Assembly (NCBI GenBank): GCA_016840065.1
Contig: JAEOTB010000010.1
Coordinates: 33,629 to 97,628, forward strand
Direction of reading: 5' to 3'
Source: Candidatus Hermodarchaeota archaeon
Lineage (GTDB): Archaea > Asgardarchaeota > Hermodarchaeia > Hermodarchaeales > Hermodarchaeaceae
Length of the DNA stretch: 64,000 bases
This document shows positions 5,013 to 64,000 of this stretch, in pieces. Position 1 is the stretch's first letter. Each line of letters begins with the position of its first letter. The notes under the pieces are model-generated. The model was not told where the DNA came from. It made no database searches and worked only from the letters and a program-made list of their open reading frames with translations. The translations under genes were made by a program, and so were the position numbers.

Positions 5013-7907
5013 TTAAACAAGATAAAGGGCTGGACGTCCAGGCAGTGCCTTAGATGCGCGGTTCTCAGGATCTTCCGATGGATTATCCGAATCTTGGATA
5101 ATTACAGTAAGTCCAGTTTCGGATTGGATGAGGTCAATGCTATCGGAAAGTGCCTGTAGCTCAGTAGCTTTGTCCGCGAAAGTCCAGAAGCCACCAGCTT
5201 TAGCGACAGCTTTAACAAGTTCGCCAATATCCTTTCCTCTCTCACGATGGTCTGGATCTGACATCAATACTGGCATTAGGTCCTTGATAGTTAGAGGTTT
5301 TTGTGAGGCATGAAGTTTTGAAAGGGCATCAAACTTCCAACTTGGACTAGTGTAGATGTGTACAGTTTTTGGTTGTTTGCTTTTGAGTAAACCCTTGACT
5401 TCCTTAATGTCAGCGATTGTCTGTAAAACTACCTCAATAGCTTTCTCCACTTTTTCGTCTTGGAATTGTTTTTCAACACCTGGCCATGACTCAAGTGAAA
5501 TGAATGAGATGTTACCCATTCTCTCCCAAATCTCTTCGCAAAGATGAGGAATGACTGGTGATAGAAGCTTCACCCATCTTTCAGCTACATAGCGTAGAAC
5601 TTTGTTTCGCTCAGGTTCATTGTTCTTCATTCTACGTTGGTAATACTCAACATGATTTTGGAGCTTGAAGAAAGCTTCTAGAATGTAGGTTCGGAATCGA
5701 TACTGTTCTAAGGCTTCTGTGGCTATATCGATTATTGTATTGACCTTAGATAGAAGCCATCGACTCGTGAGATTCAAACTTGCTGGCTCTAACGAAGCGA
5801 GTTCAATCTTAGTACTTGAGACAAGTGTGCGAACTAGCCGGTTCAGCCTTCGACGAATAGTAACTACTTCTTTGTCGCGCCAATCAATCAAGGTCGCTAA
5901 ATCGCCTATCTGACTGATGTATAGTCGGAAAAGATCAGCAGAATAACGCTTGGGAATCTCGGCCATCGGTATTACATTGCCCTTGCTCTTACTCATCTTC
6001 CTGCCTTCTAGAATTACAAATTCGTTCAACGTTATTGTCTTTGGCCAGTGGCGTTCAGGGAAAATGGCTGTATGATGATAGATGAAGAAGGAAAGATGAT
6101 TCGGTATGTGGTCATATGCGGTGTGGCGGTGCTCGTTTGGATACCAGTACTCAACTTCATTTCGCATAGTTTCAAGTAACGAGGGAGGTATTTTTGTTTG
6201 CTTTGCTACTTTGTCGATTTCTCCTTCTCCTAGCAATACAAAATCGAAGAATCCTTGGGTTAACTGGTCTGCCTTGATTCTATGCTCGCGTAAGTGATGG
6301 ATGATAAGGTAGAAGCTCATATAGATTGTTGAGTCTGAGAGGGATTCGATTATCCAGCGCTTATCGAAGGGAAATGGTGTGCCTAGTCCGCGTCTACGGG
6401 CACAAGGTCGTTCCCCAAGCCAATCGAATGTTGTCTCAAAAAGGCGCCTATAGCTTTCAGGAAATATTACCATCTGTTCTAAGGCTGAAGTCGCTTGTTC
6501 CTTCCATTCGGGGTCGCCGTAATTTATGAACCATTGATCTTGTAGTACTGCGACAATCGCATCAGTGCCGCAGCGGCAGATTACAGGTTTTCGATCAGGC
6601 TGGTAGAATCGAAAGGCTCGATTCTGCTCCTCTAAATATGCGATGACATCATCCTTGATTTCATTAACGCGGCGTCCGGCGAATGGTCCACAGTTGTCTT
6701 TCATGGTGCCTCCGTAATATTCAGCTTTGTATAGGATTTCGGTGGCTTCCTCTAATTTATCTGCCTCTTCTTGGCTAGTGATTTTCATCTTCTCTACAAT
6801 CTCTACTGCAGGGTGTTCGCCATACCCTTCAACAGTAATTATCGAGATTGGCTGAATTGACCTAGTTGCATAGGTACCAAGCTTGAAACTTCGTATCCTC
6901 TTGACATCTGCTTGAAGGTCACGAAGCGCCGCCCAATCAAAAGGCGCATGTGAAGGGACACTGTAGACGACGCCTGTTGCATTCTCAGGGTCTACAAAAT
7001 CGGCAGGAAGAATCGGAATATCTCGGTCTTCAACCGGAGATGAGCAGGATTTTCCAATGAACTTCTGTCCTAAATGTTCGGATACGTGTACTACTTTATG
7101 GCCTTGTTTGCGTAGCTTGTTTATTGCGGGTTTGGCTATATACCAATACTCCTCTCCAACTTTGATTTTTACAATAATGCTTTTCGGGTTCACCCAGATG
7201 TTGGTCAACCCATAAACAGTTTCAGGGCGAAGAGTAGCAGCCACTAGAAAACCATCATTAAAAGGAAATTTGATGGCTACGAACTCTGATATCTTGGCAT
7301 GCTCGCCTTCTAAAAGATCATCCTCGCCTACTGCATTGTTACAGGATGGGCAATAGAGAATTGGGTAAGCACCTTTGGTGATATATCCTCGCTTCTTCAA
7401 CTTGTTGAACTGCCAAGTAACGAAGGCATGATACTCTGGGTCGTTTGTTGTGAATTTCCTCCGCCAATCAACCGAATATCCCACCTTACGGAAGTCTCTT
7501 TCAATGTTTCCACTGAAAAACCGTGCTATGGACATGGGGTCAGTGAAAGAACCAAGAATCGTCTCAACTTCTTTCTTAGGGCGATAAAGCCTGATGTGCC
7601 CACGATACTCCTTCAAGATAGTGGGGTCCTTGTCCTGGATACGTCTAGCGACACCGAAAACTGGAGTACCAGTTACATGTGCAGCCATTGGCCAAAGGAC
7701 ATTGAAGCCACGCATGCGTTTGTAACGTGCAATGATATCACCAATAGTATATGGGCGACCATGACCCACATGTAGTGGTGCGTTAGCATATGGATAAGGC
7801 ACCGTTATGTAAAACTTAGGTCGTTGTGGGTCTGGATCTGCTAGGAATGCCTCAGCTTCACGCCAACGCATCTGCCACTTCGGTTCAATATCCTTAAAGT
7901 CAATCAA
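5013..7907 (-). CDS. leuS: Leucyl-tRNA synthetase (archaeal type)
   Basis: PYPYANAPLHVGH (HIGH), KMSKS, CP1 editing domain, C-terminal KALPGRPALY. Confidence 0.98.
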   Translation of the reverse strand: MIDFKDIEPKWQMRWREAEAFLADPDPQRPKFYITVPYPYANAPLHVGHGRPYTIGDIIARYKRMRGFNVLWPMAAHVTGTPVFGVARRIQDKDPTILKEYRGHIRLYRPKKEVETILGSFTDPMSIARFFSGNIERDFRKVGYSVDWRRKFTTNDPEYHAFVTWQFNKLKKRGYITKGAYPILYCPSCNNAVGEDDLLEGEHAKISEFVAIKFPFNDGFLVAATLRPETVYGLTNIWVNPKSIIVKIKVGEEYWYIAKPAINKLRKQGHKVVHVSEHLGQKFIGKSCSSPVEDRDIPILPADFVDPENATGVVYSVPSHAPFDWAALRDLQADVKRIRSFKLGTYATRSIQPISIITVEGYGEHPAVEIVEKMKITSQEEADKLEEATEILYKAEYYGGTMKDNCGPFAGRRVNEIKDDVIAYLEEQNRAFRFYQPDRKPVICRCGTDAIVAVLQDQWFINYGDPEWKEQATSALEQMVIFPESYRRLFETTFDWLGERPCARRRGLGTPFPFDKRWIIESLSDSTIYMSFYLIIHHLREHRIKADQLTQGFFDFVLLGEGEIDKVAKQTKIPPSLLETMRNEVEYWYPNEHRHTAYDHIPNHLSFFIYHHTAIFPERHWPKTITLNEFVILEGRKMSKSKGNVIPMAEIPKRYSADLFRLYISQIGDLATLIDWRDKEVVTIRRRLNRLVRTLVSSTKIELASLEPASLNLTSRWLLSKVNTIIDIATEALEQYRFRTYILEAFFKLQNHVEYYQRRMKNNEPERNKVLRYVAERWVKLLSPVIPHLCEEIWERMGNISFISLESWPGVEKQFQDEKVEKAIEVVLQTIADIKEVKGLLKSKQPKTVHIYTSPSWKFDALSKLHASQKPLTIKDLMPVLMSDPDHRERGKDIGELVKAVAKAGGFWTFADKATELQALSDSIDLIQSETGLTVIIQDSDNPSEDPENRASKALPGRPALYLV

Positions 7908-53722: not shown

Positions 53723-53819
53723 TTCTAGCCTCAACCCATTTTGACCTGAAGTAGTCACCGAATAACACAAGCCTTTAAGGCAACCTAGGGTGAATAAACG
53801 AACTTCAGGTGCTTACACC

Positions 53820-54167
53820 ATGGCAAGAAATCGTGATCTAATCTTTGCTGGTTTCCTACTTTGCCTCCTCGGGGCACTTGCTGCACTTTTCGACGGATTA
53901 CTCGGTATGGTGAATTACCTCACCCCACCAACCAACTGGAACAACATGAACCCACTCATCAACGGAATTGTCCTTCTTGTTCTAGGTATTGTCTCGCTTA
54001 TCTTGACTCTTCGAGCGAGAAGAGTTCGAGAAATCCTATTTCCCATCCTACTGTTAATCTTCGGCATCGTCATCATAGTCTTTGCTGGTATTGGTCTCAA
54101 CTTGGGTTTCCTTGGCGGGATTCTAATCCTCATCGGTTCTATACTGTTCCTAGCAGCACGTTCCTAG
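53820..54167 (+). CDS. Small 4-TM membrane protein
   Basis: Hydrophobic; paralogue of the next gene (GFLL, RVR/AVR..FP, GGILI). Confidence 0.8.
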   Translation: MARNRDLIFAGFLLCLLGALAALFDGLLGMVNYLTPPTNWNNMNPLINGIVLLVLGIVSLILTLRARRVREILFPILLLIFGIVIIVFAGIGLNLGFLGGILILIGSILFLAARS

Positions 54168-54256
54168 CCCCTATCAAAGGCAGATTTAGCTCCTATCACT
54201 CCTACGTGAAGTTCTCCGCCGTGTAGGTGAGAACGGGCAGTATATTGATAGGGGCT
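54166..54256. repeat. 12-bp inverted repeat enclosing an internal hairpin (possible structured RNA or terminator)
   Basis: agcccctatcaa (54166-54177) / ttgataggggct (54245-54256); inner gttctc...gagaac; followed by a T-rich tract. Confidence 0.7.
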
Positions 54257-54324
54257 CGCCCTTTTCTTTTCCGTGAGCTGCACAAGAGTTTAAGGGAGCT
54301 AATAATAGGGGGAGTGGGTGATAA

Positions 54325-54684
54325 TTGTTGACTCGTAGCTCAATCCACTCGATGCGCTTTGTAGGTTTTCTGCTCAGCGTTATTGGCGCTATCCTAGTTA
54401 TTCTATACGCAGCCTTTGGTTTACTAGACGCTTTGAACCATCTACTTCATCCTTCGAACCCAGATATAGCCCCTATGATTACCATTGTCCTCCTCTTCGT
54501 TTTAGCAATCATCTCAATAATTCTTGCTTTACGGATGCGCGCTGTACGAGATTCCTTTTTCCCACTTGTTCTCATAATCGTCGCTGTCATAATGATGTGG
54601 AGAACCGGATTCTCGCTCATTCCCATAATTGGCGGCATCTTGATTATAATAGGTGCAATCTTGGTTCTAACAGCAAGGAAATAA
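54325..54684 (+). CDS. Small 4-TM membrane protein (paralogue)
   Basis: Hydrophobic and similar to the upstream gene. Confidence 0.8.
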   Translation: MLTRSSIHSMRFVGFLLSVIGAILVILYAAFGLLDALNHLLHPSNPDIAPMITIVLLFVLAIISIILALRMRAVRDSFFPLVLIIVAVIMMWRTGFSLIPIIGGILIIIGAILVLTARK

Positions 54685-56748: not shown

Positions 56749-57867
56749 TTGGAAAAGCACGAACGAAGAAAAATCATGAAACTCGGTAAATCCTCACTCG
56801 TCGTTTCATTACCGAAAAGCTGGGCAAGTAAATACAAGCTAGATCCTAGTTGTCATGTGATGCTCCTACCCCAACGTGACGGCTCCCTTGCCATCTACCC
56901 AGCTAAGGCTGTCAAAGATGAGCCAACCCAGGCAGAAATCACCACTAACCCTGAAGATGAGCCAGGTATCCTAGAACGACGATTAATCGCCGCTTATTTA
57001 AACAACTTTAGCCGAATTCACATCAAATCCACTGGAGTCTTAACACCAGAACAGCAGACACTGGTCCGTAAGCGTGTCCGAATGCTCACTGGTCTGCAAA
57101 TCATCGACGCATCAACAACCGAAATTCTCATCCAATCCCTCATGCAGTTAAACCAACTAGATATCCAGAAAAGTATGCGTCTAGCCCATCGCATCACATC
57201 AACTATGTGCGTTGATGCTCTGACAGCGCTTCAGATGCGTGATTCCGAACTAGCTCAAACAGTCATTGGATTAGACGAGGATGTTAATCAGTTCTATTTC
57301 TTGGTCTTCAAGCAGCTCCGTGCTGCTCTCCTTGACCCGCGTTTCATGAATGAACTTGGTATTGACTCAATCGACTCTCTGACTTATATGATGTTCATTC
57401 AGCGGGTCGAGAATGTAGCTGACCACGCGAAAGCTATCGCTACAGCTGTTACCACTCTCGGTGCGGAAGAATGTCCGAAGGATCTTCTCAACCTCGCTCT
57501 CAAGTGTGGTAACCAGGTCCACCAAGCTTATACAACCGCTGCTGAGGCTCTGCTCTCTGGCGACGATGAAGGCGCTAACCGTGTAATCAATGAAGAAAGT
57601 ACCTTCTTACCTATGCGCCAACAGGCAGAACAACTCATGGAGCAAACCTTGGTCAAACTATGTGAAGAAATGCTCCCCTCCCTCACACCAGAAAGCTGTG
57701 CCCTTTTCGGTCCAAGGCAAAAAGCCATGTTCTGTCTCGAAAGCATCTTCGCAGCCTTTGGCAAAATCCTCGAACATAGCTGTGCCATTGCCGAGATCGC
57801 TATTGACCGAGCCTTAGAGTACGGCACTCGATGGCCAGCCAAACCAGAAAAAGACACAGCGTCCTAG
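56749..57867 (+). CDS. AbrB-PhoU phosphate uptake regulator
   Basis: ERRKIMKLGKSSLVVSLPKSW AbrB N-terminus, ENVADHA PhoU repeats. Confidence 0.9.
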   Translation: MEKHERRKIMKLGKSSLVVSLPKSWASKYKLDPSCHVMLLPQRDGSLAIYPAKAVKDEPTQAEITTNPEDEPGILERRLIAAYLNNFSRIHIKSTGVLTPEQQTLVRKRVRMLTGLQIIDASTTEILIQSLMQLNQLDIQKSMRLAHRITSTMCVDALTALQMRDSELAQTVIGLDEDVNQFYFLVFKQLRAALLDPRFMNELGIDSIDSLTYMMFIQRVENVADHAKAIATAVTTLGAEECPKDLLNLALKCGNQVHQAYTTAAEALLSGDDEGANRVINEESTFLPMRQQAEQLMEQTLVKLCEEMLPSLTPESCALFGPRQKAMFCLESIFAAFGKILEHSCAIAEIAIDRALEYGTRWPAKPEKDTAS

Positions 57868-58615: not shown

Positions 58616-59965
58616 ATGAGGAAGACATTTGGATTTACCCTCTTTTTCCTACTTTTTCTCTTTACAACTCCACTTCTGTTCCAATCAACGGCTCTATCAC
58701 CTCCAAGAAACAATTCCACTCCAGCGTTATCTCAGAAAATGCAACCAACTGGGAGTGACGCTCTTTGGATTCAGATCTACGGCGGGGCTGGCAGTGAATG
58801 GGGGCACTCCGTGATTGAATGCACTGGGGGTGGCTTCGCCCTCGCTGGGCACACAAACAGCCTTGGTAGTGGCGATCGTGACGCTTGGCTTATCCGCACC
58901 GACGCAAACGGAAACCACCAATGGAACCAAACCTTCGGTGGCGCTGACCGAGATGAGAGCTACTTCATGGTTGAATGCACTGGGGGTGGCTTCGCCCTCG
59001 CTGGCTTTACTTACACGTTTGGAGCCGGGGCTTCAGATGCGTACCTTATCAGAACTGACAGCACAGGGAACCAGCAATGGACCCAGACCTTCGGTGGACC
59101 TGCCCGAGACGAAACAATCCCCGTCGTGGAATGTAGTGATGGTGGCTTCGCCCTCGGTGGATACACCTATAGCTTTGGTGCTGGAGGATCAGATGTCTGG
59201 CTCCTTCGAACAGACAGCAACGGGAATCACCTATGGAACCAGACCTTTGGCGGCGCGAACAACGACGAGGCATGGGGAATGGCACCCTGTGTCGACGGGG
59301 GGTTTGTCCTTGTGGGAATAACAGAAAGCTACGGGGCTGGCGACTCCGACATCTACGTAGTACGCACAGACTCCAATGGCGCCCTACAATGGAACCAGAG
59401 CTACGGCGGTTCTGACGAAGAATGGGGGGTATCCATTGCAGAACTCAGCAACGGAGACTTCATCATATCCGGTCGAACCGAAAGCTTTGGAGCAGGTTTT
59501 GGTGATGCCTGGCTCATCCGCACCGACAGCACAGGCAACGCTCTATGGAACCGCACCATCGGTGGCACACTAGACGATATGGGCCAAGGAGTAATCGAAT
59601 GTAGTGATGGCGGCTTTGCCCTCATCTGCGAAACGCAAAGTCATGGCGCAGGATCCTACGATGCGTGGTTACTACGAATCGACGAAGACGGAAACACACT
59701 CTGGAGCAGAATCTTTGGAGAATCGGGTAGCGACGAAGCTTTCGTGGTCACCGAAAGCAGCACAGGAGACTACGTAATCACTGGGTCAACCGAAAGCTAT
59801 GGATCAACCCTTCGTGACATCTGGCTTATACACGTCTCTGGAACAGCACCAACAACGCCGCCAGCAATACCTGGCTTCCCATGGCTAGCAATTATCACAA
59901 CCCTCACAGCCACTCTAAGCCTAACCTTACTCCAACGACGCAGGCGCAACACCCACAATAAATAA
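58616..59965 (+). CDS. Secreted beta-propeller repeat protein with an IPGF-TM-basic C-terminal sorting signal
   Basis: 52-aa repeats (GGFALAG.T.S.G.G..DAWLIRTD..GN..W.QTFGG), ending PAIPGFPW-TM-RRRR. Confidence 0.88.
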   Translation: MRKTFGFTLFFLLFLFTTPLLFQSTALSPPRNNSTPALSQKMQPTGSDALWIQIYGGAGSEWGHSVIECTGGGFALAGHTNSLGSGDRDAWLIRTDANGNHQWNQTFGGADRDESYFMVECTGGGFALAGFTYTFGAGASDAYLIRTDSTGNQQWTQTFGGPARDETIPVVECSDGGFALGGYTYSFGAGGSDVWLLRTDSNGNHLWNQTFGGANNDEAWGMAPCVDGGFVLVGITESYGAGDSDIYVVRTDSNGALQWNQSYGGSDEEWGVSIAELSNGDFIISGRTESFGAGFGDAWLIRTDSTGNALWNRTIGGTLDDMGQGVIECSDGGFALICETQSHGAGSYDAWLLRIDEDGNTLWSRIFGESGSDEAFVVTESSTGDYVITGSTESYGSTLRDIWLIHVSGTAPTTPPAIPGFPWLAIITTLTATLSLTLLQRRRRNTHNK

Positions 59966-60080
59966 GACTAACGGCAACAACTCAAATCCAACAGGGAAGA
60001 CACCGTACACTTATTGAACCAATGAATAAAGATTAAATCTTCTCCCTGCCTAGCCCTCCTCAAGTAGAGGGAAAAACACA

Positions 60081-60713
60081 ATGCACAAGATTACACTCAC
60101 CTACCAGGCCGATGGCGGCAGGCAACAATGGAGCGAACACCACCCGCTCACTGAGGTTATCGACCTCATTTTTTCTGGAATCGAGACCATAGACCTTGCA
60201 CCTCTCCAATACTGCAGAAAACTCCGTCACCTCCTACTCGGCGGGAATGTGCTGATATCAATAGATCTTGATCCCCTCCAACACTGCAAAAACCTCCAAT
60301 ACATCACATTCGATGGAAACCATCTAGCGAAGCTAAACCTGGGCCCCCTCCAACACTGTACGAAGCTCCAATACCTCTGGCTCAGCGGGAATCAGCTGCA
60401 GAGGCTAGACCTGGGCCCCCTCCAACACTGCAAAAACCTCCAAAACCTCCACCTCGACTACAACCAGTTGAAAAAGCTAGACCTAGACCCCCTCCAACAC
60501 TGTGCAAAACTACGCCACCTCCTACTCAATGGCAACCCATTGAAGAAACTAGATATATCTCCTCTCTTCGCCTGCACCAAACTCCAAACACTACTCCTAG
60601 GCGAAAAAGTGGTTCTAACAGCACACACCGACCTCCAAGGCACAGCCAAGATACCTAAAGCGCTTCGCGCACTAGTTGCAAAGGACAAAATCAAATGGCG
60701 ACCAAGCAGCTAA
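60081..60713 (+). CDS. Leucine-rich repeat protein (22-aa repeats)
   Basis: LDLxPLQHCxxLxxLxLxxNxL repeats; 66-bp DNA periodicity. Confidence 0.92.
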   Translation: MHKITLTYQADGGRQQWSEHHPLTEVIDLIFSGIETIDLAPLQYCRKLRHLLLGGNVLISIDLDPLQHCKNLQYITFDGNHLAKLNLGPLQHCTKLQYLWLSGNQLQRLDLGPLQHCKNLQNLHLDYNQLKKLDLDPLQHCAKLRHLLLNGNPLKKLDISPLFACTKLQTLLLGEKVVLTAHTDLQGTAKIPKALRALVAKDKIKWRPSS

Positions 60714-60784
60714 CGCACACCAGATTCAGCGATAATCTCCTTCACGATCTGCTCAAAACCAATCGCTATGATATGACAACCAGC
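60710..60784 (-). pseudogene. metF 3'-end fragment, copy A
   Basis: Encodes AGCHIIAIGFEQIVKEIIAESGVR*, 23/24 aa identical to the metF C-terminus. Confidence 0.92.
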
Positions 60785-60873
60785 CGTATACAACAATGGT
60801 TGCTAGTCAGGCACTAAACCGAAGATATTAATTTTAAATTCGGAGATAATAGGATAAGGGAGCGTGAGCAGAA

Positions 60874-61557
60874 ATGCGGATTCTTACGTTTAGTGATATC
60901 CATGGCAATACTGAAGCAGTGAGAAAACTAATTTCTGAAGTGTCAGACACTGAATTTGACGCAATTGTCTTCGGGGGTGATTTCACCAATGCTTGGTTTG
61001 AAGGGTTAGAAGCGGGGAGACGCCAAATGGATGAAATAACATCTCTACTCCAATCACTCGATCGCCCTTTCTACTACGTATATGGTAATAGAGACTTTTC
61101 ATCATTCGAACGAGGTATAGTTAAGTGCTCATTTGGAAAAAATATTGATGAGAAGGATTGGGACTTGGGGGACTACACGCTTACTAGTAAAACCAAGAGA
61201 TTAGACAAACAGAAAATACTAGTCACTCATATATTTCATCAGGCATTGAAGAACAAACAAGCACAATCCTTACTGTATCTATACGGACATGACCACAAAG
61301 CCCGTATCTACAAGAACTACATTAACCTTGGATTTCTTTATCGAGGAAAGGGGGCTCACGGCGCCTATCAGTCATTATTCGGTTGCTATTGGTTCATCGA
61401 CTTGGAAGACGGAGAATTTAACCCAGAAATCCATCTTTGGCAGCTAAAAGAATCTGTATGTCCAAATCATGAGGACCAAGGGGTATTCTACATCCCTCAT
61501 TACTGGAAAAGAGCTTGCCCACTTTGTTATGACGAAGAAACTCGGTTAGATTTCTAA
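60874..61557 (+). CDS. Metallophosphoesterase with a C-terminal Cys/His motif
   Basis: SDIHGN, GGDF, GNRD, VTH, GHDH; CPNH...CPLC. Confidence 0.85.
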   Translation: MRILTFSDIHGNTEAVRKLISEVSDTEFDAIVFGGDFTNAWFEGLEAGRRQMDEITSLLQSLDRPFYYVYGNRDFSSFERGIVKCSFGKNIDEKDWDLGDYTLTSKTKRLDKQKILVTHIFHQALKNKQAQSLLYLYGHDHKARIYKNYINLGFLYRGKGAHGAYQSLFGCYWFIDLEDGEFNPEIHLWQLKESVCPNHEDQGVFYIPHYWKRACPLCYDEETRLDF

Positions 61558-61704
61558 TGTAATTCAGAGCCCTCAAAAGTAACCAGAAAAACTACGTACT
61601 CGGATATGGATAAACACAATGCATTATCCTTAAGAACATAGTACGAGTTAGTAGTCGATGCTCAATCAACAATATTATTCATAAATTAAAGCGAGGGAAG
61701 AATA

Positions 61705-62268
61705 CTGCCAGAATATTACTTCGATATGGAAACAACTGGGTCAAATCCTACCCAAGATGAGATTGTTACAATCCAATACCAGCGAATGGATATGAGAACT
61801 GGCAAACCAATTGAGCCCTTGGTGATATTGAAGCGATGGGACTCCTCAGAGCAAGAAATACTTCAAAAATTCCTTGAAACATTCAATAACTTTACTAACC
61901 CATGGGTCTTCGTCATGGTTGGTAGCAATCTAAGTTTTGACAAAACTCTACTTATAACACGCGCCAAAGCGCTTCTAAACCTTGAGATAAACCCGATTCA
62001 TTTCTTCCACAACCATCCCACGTTCGATCTAAAATCAATCAAAATCCTCTTGAATAAGGGACAATTCAGAGGTTCTAGCTTCGCCAATTTACTACAAGAA
62101 GAACGACAGGGCGGTTTAGTGCCCGAATGGTACAATAACGAAGAATACCCAAAAATAATCGAATACATTGAGAACGAAACTAAATTCTTCTTCAAGATAT
62201 ACAAGGTTCTACTCGACGAGATAAGGCAGCTACCAGGAATCAAAAACATCTTTACAACTTTTGACTAA
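61705..62268 (+). CDS. RNase H-fold DEDD 3'-5' exonuclease-like protein
   Basis: YYFDMETTG (ExoI, needs a start upstream of 61726), GSNLSFD, DL, YIENE. Confidence 0.75.
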   Translation: MPEYYFDMETTGSNPTQDEIVTIQYQRMDMRTGKPIEPLVILKRWDSSEQEILQKFLETFNNFTNPWVFVMVGSNLSFDKTLLITRAKALLNLEINPIHFFHNHPTFDLKSIKILLNKGQFRGSSFANLLQEERQGGLVPEWYNNEEYPKIIEYIENETKFFFKIYKVLLDEIRQLPGIKNIFTTFD

Positions 62269-62317
62269 CCCAATCGTTCATTTTTCATAGGTGTGCTCCA
62301 AATCAACAATAGCTTTC

Positions 62318-62680
62318 TCACACTGACCCCTCTTCAACTCGTGCATAATCCGCCCAACTCTCTCCAGATAGCCGCTCGATAACAAATTCAGAATAGAACT
62401 GCCGAGTCTGCAAATCATAGTACAGAACTGGCGTTTCAAGCATTTTAGCCAAGCGCACCTCATCAAACACCCCCCTCCCTATTATCCCCTCCACTTTCGC
62501 CATAAACACAACCAAATCCGCCTCACAAACTCGCCGAAAATAAAAACTCATCCTCTGCGAAGGAAAATCTGCAGGGTTGTAAATAATCGCATCAGGAAAC
62601 TTCTGCCTAATCGCCTTCAGAACCTCACTTTCCTGTTTCGAATCATAGGTAGGAATCGGATGAGCAAAATAAATCTGCAT
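62318..62680 (-). CDS. Nucleoside 2-deoxyribosyltransferase-like protein
   Basis: IYFAHP, IYNPA, ADLVVF, GRGVFDEV..A. Confidence 0.7.
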   Translation of the reverse strand: MQIYFAHPIPTYDSKQESEVLKAIRQKFPDAIIYNPADFPSQRMSFYFRRVCEADLVVFMAKVEGIIGRGVFDEVRLAKMLETPVLYYDLQTRQFYSEFVIERLSGESWADYARVEEGSV

Positions 62681-62792
62681 ACAATCTGACCTCTCGAATC
62701 CTAAAGATAACCTAGCAAACTACTCCATTCTAATAACTATTCCTGGTAAAGATGACTACTGCGTAAGGACTAGAACCATCCCTCAAACTAGA

Positions 62793-62909
62793 TTAACGCA
62801 CACCTGGCTCGGCGATAGTCTCCTTCACAATCTGCTCAAAACCAATCGCCATGATATGACAACCAGCAGCACTGGTGGTCTTGCGAATCTCCCTCACAAG
62901 ATCGCTAAA
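62793..62909 (-). pseudogene. metF 3'-end fragment, copy B
   Basis: Encodes FSDLVREIRKTTSAAGCHIMAIGFEQIVKETIAEPGVR*, 31/38 aa identical to metF. Confidence 0.92.
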
Positions 62910-62933
62910 AATGAGTGTAAAGGGTCAGCTGGA

Positions 62934-63386
62934 TTAGATTTTCCCTTTCACAGCGCCCCCGTGATAGCGCACGTGGTGGACTTCCCATCCTTTATAATAT
63001 ATCTTCTCAATTCCCTGGAACAGGTTGATGTCCCCCTCGCTCCTGTCCGTGTATCTGAAATGACCCTCCTTGAACTCACTTGGTCCTCGGAAAGGTCTGT
63101 CTCCCTTTACAAGCATCATGGCTTTACGCAGGAACTCGAATATCTGCTCATCTGTGACCTCCCCTGACTTTGACCAGCCATAATAGTTCAAAATCCAGAT
63201 AACTTCGCCGTCTTTCCAGACAACTGTCTCACCTGCAAAAGGATTGAACCCAAAATACCTGTCCCTGAACCTGAATTCACCCTCTTCATAAACAAACTCC
63301 ATGCTGCCGTCATCCAGAACCTTGCCCTCGCTCCCGCTTGCGTAAGCGCTTCTATTTGCCTTGACCAGGAACTCATCAAATTGCAT
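62934..63386 (-). CDS. DUF5680-like protein
   Basis: FLVKA...YA, DRYFG..FAGE, PFRGP, F.G.E.I, YHGG. Confidence 0.75.
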   Translation of the reverse strand: MQFDEFLVKANRSAYASGSEGKVLDDGSMEFVYEEGEFRFRDRYFGFNPFAGETVVWKDGEVIWILNYYGWSKSGEVTDEQIFEFLRKAMMLVKGDRPFRGPSEFKEGHFRYTDRSEGDINLFQGIEKIYYKGWEVHHVRYHGGAVKGKI

Positions 63387-63420
63387 AGCTCATTTTACCA
63401 GCTTTTGATTTAAATTTGTA

Positions 63421-63442
63421 TGCGGCTGCCGGGATTCGAACC
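63421..63442 (-). other. Isolated tRNA 3'-end relic (T-arm plus acceptor strand), att-like
   Basis: Reverse complement GGTTCGAATCCCGGCAGCCGCA with no 5' half upstream. Confidence 0.75.
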
Positions 63443-63602
63443 AATTCACACCCAAAATCACTCCACAACAAAAAGAAATCCTCCTATCCCAGCAAACACA
63501 ACCCCGCCGCCCCGCTGGGACCCAAATCACCCAGCGAATGGGAACTATAAGTGAAGAACAAAGAACGCTCTTTTTCTATCCTTTAAATAAAGCGAATTCA
63601 GG

Positions 63603-64000
63603 CTAGCCTCGCACACCAGACTCTGCAATGATTTCCTTCACAATCTGCTCGAAACCAATCGCCATAATATGACAACCAGCAGCATTAGTCGTCTTGCGAA
63701 TAGATTTAACCAGATTCGCAAAGTACTCCACGTTTAAGCGATATGTCTTTTCTTTTCGGGTTGGCTTGTCTTCAATCTTTGATAATTTCTCCATCTCGCT
63801 CATTAGGTCGTCAGGTACTGTCATCCCCGGGACGTACCGATGGACCCATTGGGCCACCTTGAAGCTCTTCAATGGGCATAGTCCTATGAGGGTGGGGATT
63901 TTGATGTGTTTGATTTGATTCATGAAGTCCTGGGCTTCCTGTACGGTGTAGACTACTTGGGTTTGTATGAATTCGGCGCCGATGGATTCTTTTCTTTCGA
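63603..64000 (-). CDS. metF: Methylenetetrahydrofolate reductase, C-terminal part (truncated by the window)
   Basis: GAEFIQTQVVY, PTLIGLCPLKS, VPGMTVP, GCHIMAIG. Confidence 0.88.
   Translation of the reverse strand, partial: ERKESIGAEFIQTQVVYTVQEAQDFMNQIKHIKIPTLIGLCPLKSFKVAQWVHRYVPGMTVPDDLMSEMEKLSKIEDKPTRKEKTYRLNVEYFANLVKSIRKTTNAAGCHIMAIGFEQIVKEIIAESGVRG

Follow-up and report, generated by a model that had tools for sequence, protein, structure and literature searches.

What leaves a housekeeping gene followed by worn copies of its own end, with unrelated genes lodged between them? The question is raised by metF in a 64,000-nt stretch of a Candidatus Hermodarchaeota archaeon genome (GenBank assembly GCA_016840065.1, contig JAEOTB010000010.1, positions 33,629 to 97,628), which we call the window. 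A first-pass annotation had noticed two extra copies of the metF 3' end downstream of the gene, in metF orientation and each with its own stop codon, and our sequence comparisons confirmed both. We consider it probable that repeated homing left this array behind, the homing element being made up of a replacement metF 3' end and a convergent gene for a free-standing LAGLIDADG endonuclease. The window is a decayed example, and it is the relatives that provide the strong evidence. Below, G000 is the genome of the window (2.59 Mb, 84% complete; contig C69), and all other G and L labels denote genomes and loci of the relatives compared. The window ends where the contig ends, inside metF, and the 5' part of the gene is absent from the assembly.

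A convergent endonuclease gene beside metF

G001 has a 766-aa open reading frame (ORF) lying tail-to-tail with metF, the two stop codons overlapping. Homologues of 639–647 aa occupy the same position in L100, L102 and L104, followed by 0.5–7 kb of DNA and then by a displaced metF tail. Counting G001, four related loci have an intact, free-standing gene that converges on metF from downstream. Searches of Pfam and NCBIfam gave no match to the family, and the best hit in a sequence search of the PDB was only the TliVMA intein (E 0.1). An AlphaFold model of the protein (pLDDT 87.5) matched two-domain LAGLIDADG endonucleases in Foldseek (E 3e-6). It superimposed on the TliVMA intein endonuclease over 193 residues (VIA Z 17.2, root-mean-square deviation 2.6), on I-Tsp061I with Z 16.1, on PI-PfuI with Z 15.7 and on the domesticated WhiA with Z 15.5, while unrelated folds gave Z values of 5 or less. 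The model thus predicts a two-domain LAGLIDADG homing endonuclease fold for the metF-convergent family. The catalytic acid at the end of both LAGLIDADG motifs is kept in 154 of 155 homologues; WhiA does not keep both. The N-terminal part is modelled as mostly helical, with a best Z of 5.3, no Hint fold listed and no Pfam match. Clustering at 50% identity divides the protein family into 637 clusters (213 at E<1e-30), and members were found in 13 of 17 genomes of this archaeal family as well as in 8 of 17 genomes from another Asgard family.

Endonuclease relics and displaced tails in the window

Scraps of this gene, overlooked in the first-pass annotation, lie in the window at the expected places and on the expected strand (coordinates in Table 1). 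Behind the active metF end, presumably the latest one delivered, a relic of two scraps scores 64, whereas none of 300 random genome windows exceeds 36. Directly after the long displaced tail comes the 3' tip of an older endonuclease gene, whose score was equalled in none of 1000 random windows. The stops of tail and tip overlap as in the intact G001 locus, and the two align to the G001 junction as one block (148 bp, 81%). A third, weak relic lies beyond the leucine-rich repeat (LRR) gene, and the tail that precedes it in G001 has been lost from the window. The same endonuclease tip follows metF tails in G001 and G003.

The short tail, called copy A in the first-pass annotation, differs from G000 metF at 10 of 24 codons, all at third positions and nine of them synonymous, and its stop overlaps that of the LRR gene; both observations hold. 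No metF copies beyond these two tails were found in the 2.59-Mb G000 genome.

Resident and foreign metF ends

Trees of the two parts of metF were compared in the sister genus. With the 5' part, L100 pairs with G010 (support 100/99) and G012 with G018 (97/96). With the 3' part, all four displaced tails join the alleles of empty sites (99/99), the tail of G012 standing next to G018 (100/99), and the active ends fall outside. Consistent with this, L100 and G010 are 81–90% identical up to 240 nt before the stop and 55–72% identical after that point. Because the trees are discordant and the tails go with empty-site alleles, sequence comparison indicates that in the sister genus the displaced tails are the former resident ends and the active ends are foreign. 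The earlier proposal that the fragments are displaced ends of once-functional metF alleles is upheld by this tree and by the comparison with relatives.

An accretion site in related genomes

Tails downstream of metF were found in G001 (two), G003, G006, G012, L100, L102, L104 and L151, with different cargo in each, and other relatives have an empty or nearly empty site. Alignment of the metF-downstream regions thus revealed variable cargo, and the existence of empty, single-insert and multi-insert versions supports the first-pass view of the site as an accretion point. At one empty site metF is joined to phoU with a 9-bp gap, and at an empty site in the sister genus another conserved gene is next to metF. 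Since empty sites join metF directly to these genes, the ~5.7 kb that separates the two genes metF and phoU in the window has probably all been acquired. Five tails outside the window's genus start 208–233 nt from the stop, at a conserved VPG motif. Separately, one locus (L039:2038-2967, G013) has a metF with an element-type 3' end and neither endonuclease nor tail behind it, the state that pop-out between active end and tail would be expected to leave.

A homing model

We propose that an endonuclease arriving on a relative's DNA would cut a sensitive metF allele near the conserved 3' motif. Repair on the donor would then copy the donor metF end, the endonuclease gene and DNA behind it, an outcome found in relatives, with a second joint formed perhaps via the donor's own displaced tail, or perhaps illegitimately. 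The host metF would become chimeric and its resident end would be pushed outward with its old flank, the arrangement observed in the sister genus. Deletion would afterwards reduce the endonuclease gene to scraps, cargo and tails would remain, and new invasions would follow at the same site, stages that can be seen in the arrays themselves. Cargo would enter between endonuclease and tail by non-homologous joints, as suggested by a 519-bp segment of the window (62925-63442) that is common to an unrelated locus (G002:C53). Cleavage, DNA transfer between cells and the first cargo-entry joints are steps that we infer.

Several points weigh against this model. The tails in the window's genus are short and uneven (68–126 nt), and therefore need erosion or a second cut site. 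No intact metF-type endonuclease is present in the window, and no endonuclease tip lies behind the short tail. The chimera test comes from the sister genus, the 5' part of metF being missing from G000, and its 3' tree has only 195 columns. More than half of the endonuclease loci have no detectable tail, and these loci are not independent of one another. Finally, neither L151 nor other tail arrays of G000 (at ino1, an HD gene and a small RNA) show a relic of the endonuclease family. A broader endonuclease profile likewise found none at these G000 arrays, though the short window relics, visible at the DNA level only, also escape that profile. Several tail arrays being without a relic, the family may not explain all of them.

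Two of the other repeat arrays in G000 can be described further. At L083:1712-1945 and 6678-7742 (G000:C65), a 238-bp displaced tail of an ino1-like gene is accompanied by two large unannotated ORFs as cargo, with no relic of the endonuclease family. L084:232-4348 (G000:C88) has five copies of a ~60-bp repeat with single genes between them.

Other target genes and competing explanations

Accretion is not peculiar to metF, for displaced tails of other housekeeping genes lie beside the same endonuclease family. Among the targets are a hydrogenase subunit of the complex I 49-kDa type (up to four tails), a NiFe large subunit, an FAD oxidase and, presumably, acetyl-CoA synthetase-like and cysteine desulfurase-like genes, which we recognised from motifs. 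At L089, L090 and L091, a group 4 hydrogenase / complex I 49-kDa gene of 401 aa is followed by arrays of 3–4 displaced tails, and intact endonucleases are present.

This wider sample bears on nuclease-independent capture of DNA from relatives, in which recombination within metF and an illegitimate joint would bring in cargo and the endonuclease would merely hitch-hike. Such homology-anchored capture, put forward as the driver in the first-pass annotation, would account for the uneven tail lengths in the window's genus, for cargo with abrupt non-homologous ends and for the tail arrays that have no endonuclease relic. The tails, however, go with the endonuclease: of the 37 endonuclease loci that could be tested, 16 have direct copies of their 3' flank beyond their 5' end (for full-length genes of this archaeal family, 9 of 14), with inverted copies at 1 of 37 and far copies at none as controls, counts that are descriptive because the loci are related. 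Orphan downstream tails, on the other hand, amount to 8 hits among ~2,360 ORFs of G000, some of them paralogues. Moreover, the starts of the longest tails fall on conserved motifs, among them DPCFSC, DPCLSC and RSGK, and strict retention of the catalytic residues also counts against a hitch-hiker. With a free-standing LAGLIDADG gene tied to the site, we regard passive capture as an improbable driver; it may be the route by which cargo first enters.

At least as improbable, in our view, is a history of site-specific integrative elements that used an attachment (att) site inside metF, carried a replacement 3' end and later lost their integrase, with the endonuclease as passenger. Element e14 and phage 21 at icd, and the accretion of cis-mobilizable elements (CIMEs) at fda, are established parallels with the same anatomy of displaced ends. 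The fairly fixed start of the tails in two genera (208–233 nt) would suit an att core, a tRNA 3' relic is present in the cargo, and 14 of 19 genomes of the family have a tyrosine recombinase somewhere, away from these loci. Against this, a search of 159 loci and of G000, whose leave-one-out control recovered 6 of 8 and missed 2 of 8 divergent ones, detected no tyrosine recombinase; no serine recombinase was found in G000 (84% complete), and no integrase was found downstream of metF in the window or in the loci spanning both sides of metF. The first-pass statement that no integrase is present agrees with these searches. Minimal inserts (L086, L089, L091, L110) consist of an endonuclease alone, with a tail 70–200 nt before its start, and the endonuclease tree groups by target gene (metF 99/99, hydrogenase 100/100), neither of which fits a passenger.

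Local duplication or strain-chimera misassembly, which the end of the contig inside metF might suggest, is very improbable given that the divergence is mostly synonymous, that the tails are closer to other genomes' alleles than to the local one, and that the same layout, including the junction of short tail and LRR gene, recurs in independent assemblies.

Cargo and neighbouring genes

Table 1. Features of the metF–phoU region, in window coordinates
Feature	Position	Strand	Evidence or remark
Active metF, 3' part (last 131 codons)	63603..64000	-	PF02219, E 9e-14; contig ends inside gene
Endonuclease gene relic, two scraps (internal codons ~601-615; N-terminal codons ~70-83 of G001 gene)	63440..63526	+	82% over 45 bp, 88% over 41 bp to G001 gene
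tRNA 3'-end relic	63421..63442	-	21/22 identical to spliced form of G000 intron-containing tRNA-Gly(TCC); edge of captured segment
Cargo DUF5680 gene (PF18931)	62934..63386	-	Inside the 519-bp segment
Displaced metF tail, long copy	62793..62909	-	92 bp at 87% to G000's own metF, E 3e-26; reaches 62909 against G001 allele
3' tip of older endonuclease gene	62765..62796	+	Ends in GLEPSLKLD-stop, against GLEPVLQLN-stop in the G001 gene
Cargo nucleoside deoxyribosyltransferase / DUF4406-like protein (lead only)	62318..62680	-	ESM Atlas features 0.89-0.90
Cargo DEDDh exonuclease-like protein	61726..62268	+	PADLOC DEDDh E 1.5e-4; PF00929 weak
Cargo metallophosphoesterase	60874..61557	+	In the block of 40% GC
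Displaced metF tail, short copy	60710..60784	-	96% over 71 bp to active G001 allele
LRR gene	60081..60713	+	Cargo of an older round; also in G001, with another tail past it there
Weak relic of another endonuclease 3' end	59974..60032	+	Beyond LRR gene; scores 32-42, random maxima 30-32
phoU-like gene	56749..57867	+	At an empty site, adjoins metF directly and converges with it; outer limit of accreted region

The first-pass cargo assignments stand: DUF5680, a metallophosphoesterase, a weak DEDDh exonuclease and, on features only, a deoxyribosyltransferase-like protein, which has no Pfam or NCBIfam match. The segment shared with G002:C53 (93% identical, and there in unrelated surroundings) holds DUF5680 and the tRNA relic, and in G002 a more decayed copy of the relic precedes DUF5680. 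Because the relic moves with this segment, we take it to be an edge of captured DNA and reject it as the att site of this array. The G000 tRNA-Gly(TCC) gene itself (L150, G000:C78:~77947-78052) has an intron in the T-loop and was missed by ARAGORN.

The block of metallophosphoesterase, exonuclease and deoxyribosyltransferase-like genes has a GC content of 40%, below the genome's 47%, and a DNA search of 18 genomes of the family gave no match to it. A defence role for this block is not supported, PADLOC giving the weak DEDDh match alone.

The overlap of the short tail's stop with that of the LRR gene had been read as an ancestral junction. We reject the LRR gene as the ancestral neighbour of metF: G001 aligns across short tail and LRR gene (470 bp) and carries another tail beyond the latter, and empty sites join metF to phoU or, in the sister genus, to a different gene. 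The LRR gene is thus cargo of an older round.

Also inside the accreted region, at 58619-59965, is a gene for a beta-propeller protein with a Loki-CTERM sorting domain; as it is absent from this position in G001, it is a separate insertion. At 53790-54684, two tandem small membrane-protein paralogues adjoin a phosphoglycerate mutase gene, where the sister genus has one.

Other members of the endonuclease family

G000 has two intact family members elsewhere. One, of 793 aa (L079:17040-19421; G000:C78:115339-117720), has an aglB/STT3-like gene immediately downstream of it in the same orientation, and a 165-bp, 90% identical copy of its own 3' end is found 13 kb upstream, a layout unlike the convergent metF type. 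The other, of 660 aa (L080:4776-6758; G000:C74), is near three copies of a 100–140 bp repeat. In another Asgard family (L107, L108, L112, L114, L122, L135, L136), several members run 1–22 bp into the start of the next gene downstream, which reads in the same direction. These could be a variant that supplies a 5' end; no displaced gene heads were seen near them where this was testable.

Comparison with known systems and implications

Polar accretion of cargo at one site is also typical of integrons and of tandem integrase islands (icd/e14, CIMEs at fda, tRNA and tmRNA genes), and the islands likewise leave displaced gene ends. Unlike in those systems, no integrase was detected here, and the repeats are pieces of host-gene (metF) coding sequence with uneven starts. 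The integron-like comparison made in the first-pass annotation is accordingly not supported, since it is a free-standing LAGLIDADG endonuclease gene that is tied to the site.

The closest resemblance is to the WHO elements at FBA1 in Torulaspora and Lachancea yeasts, where, in the published model, a sensitive allele is cut and repaired on the donor with a displaced fragment as the second homology arm (PMC7282813; Coughlan et al. 2020). The 3' end is replaced, old ends are pushed outward into clusters and the endonuclease decays (PMC7282813). The same features recur here, namely a free-standing LAGLIDADG gene behind the host gene, a replaced 3' end with older ends displaced outward, endonuclease decay and, in the sister genus, a chimeric host gene with discordant trees. 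At the same time, the Asgard elements differ in residing on an archaeal chromosome, in showing no sign of an intein splicing domain (judged from the N-terminal model only), in targeting many genes, among them metF, hydrogenase subunits and FAD oxidase, rather than FBA1, in holding unrelated cargo between tails, and in tails of 70–230 bp as opposed to ~400 bp in WHO; cleavage here is predicted. The WHO-type C-terminal Cys-x-x-Cys zinc finger is not evident, only 4 of 143 proteins having a CxxC within their final 120 aa. With no zinc finger and other targets, the element would act like WHO and is not a member of the WHO family.

In fungal mitochondria, mobile endonuclease ORFs (mORFs; Allomyces atp6; Glomus atp6, atp9, cox2 and nad3; PMC3630166) are similarly flanked by an expressed C-terminus of foreign origin on one side and by the displaced native C-terminus on the other, and the native tail groups with relatives' alleles. 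The mORFs are organellar, co-transcribed with the host gene and mostly single inserts with no cargo stacks, whereas the genes described here are convergent and encode at least 640 aa. In phage HEG-islands (PMC10448857), homing endonucleases move neighbouring cargo by recombinational repair and with no integrase. These islands belong to phage genomes and involve other nuclease families and essential-gene cargo bracketed by two homing endonuclease genes (HEGs), and, in contrast to our loci, no displaced host-gene tails are seen in the passages considered. We found no archaeal description of such elements in the literature searched, coverage of which was incomplete. New with respect to the known systems are the archaeal chromosome, the many targets, the strict convergence at metF and the unrelated cargo.

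On balance, we lean towards a broader reading, in which this unannotated LAGLIDADG family of 637 clusters forms, in Asgard archaea, an active class of homing elements that swap gene tails, and whose homing carries cargo and makes the 3' ends of many housekeeping genes integrase-free entry points for new genes. Tail boundaries would reveal the target sites of hundreds of candidate meganucleases, and the claim is therefore directly testable in vitro. If it is true, chimeric 3' ends are predicted in marker genes, which would be a hazard for phylogenies. Such a class on Asgard chromosomes, hitting many conserved genes and bringing cargo with it, would then provide a mechanism by which a lineage near the eukaryotes gains genes with no need of integrases.

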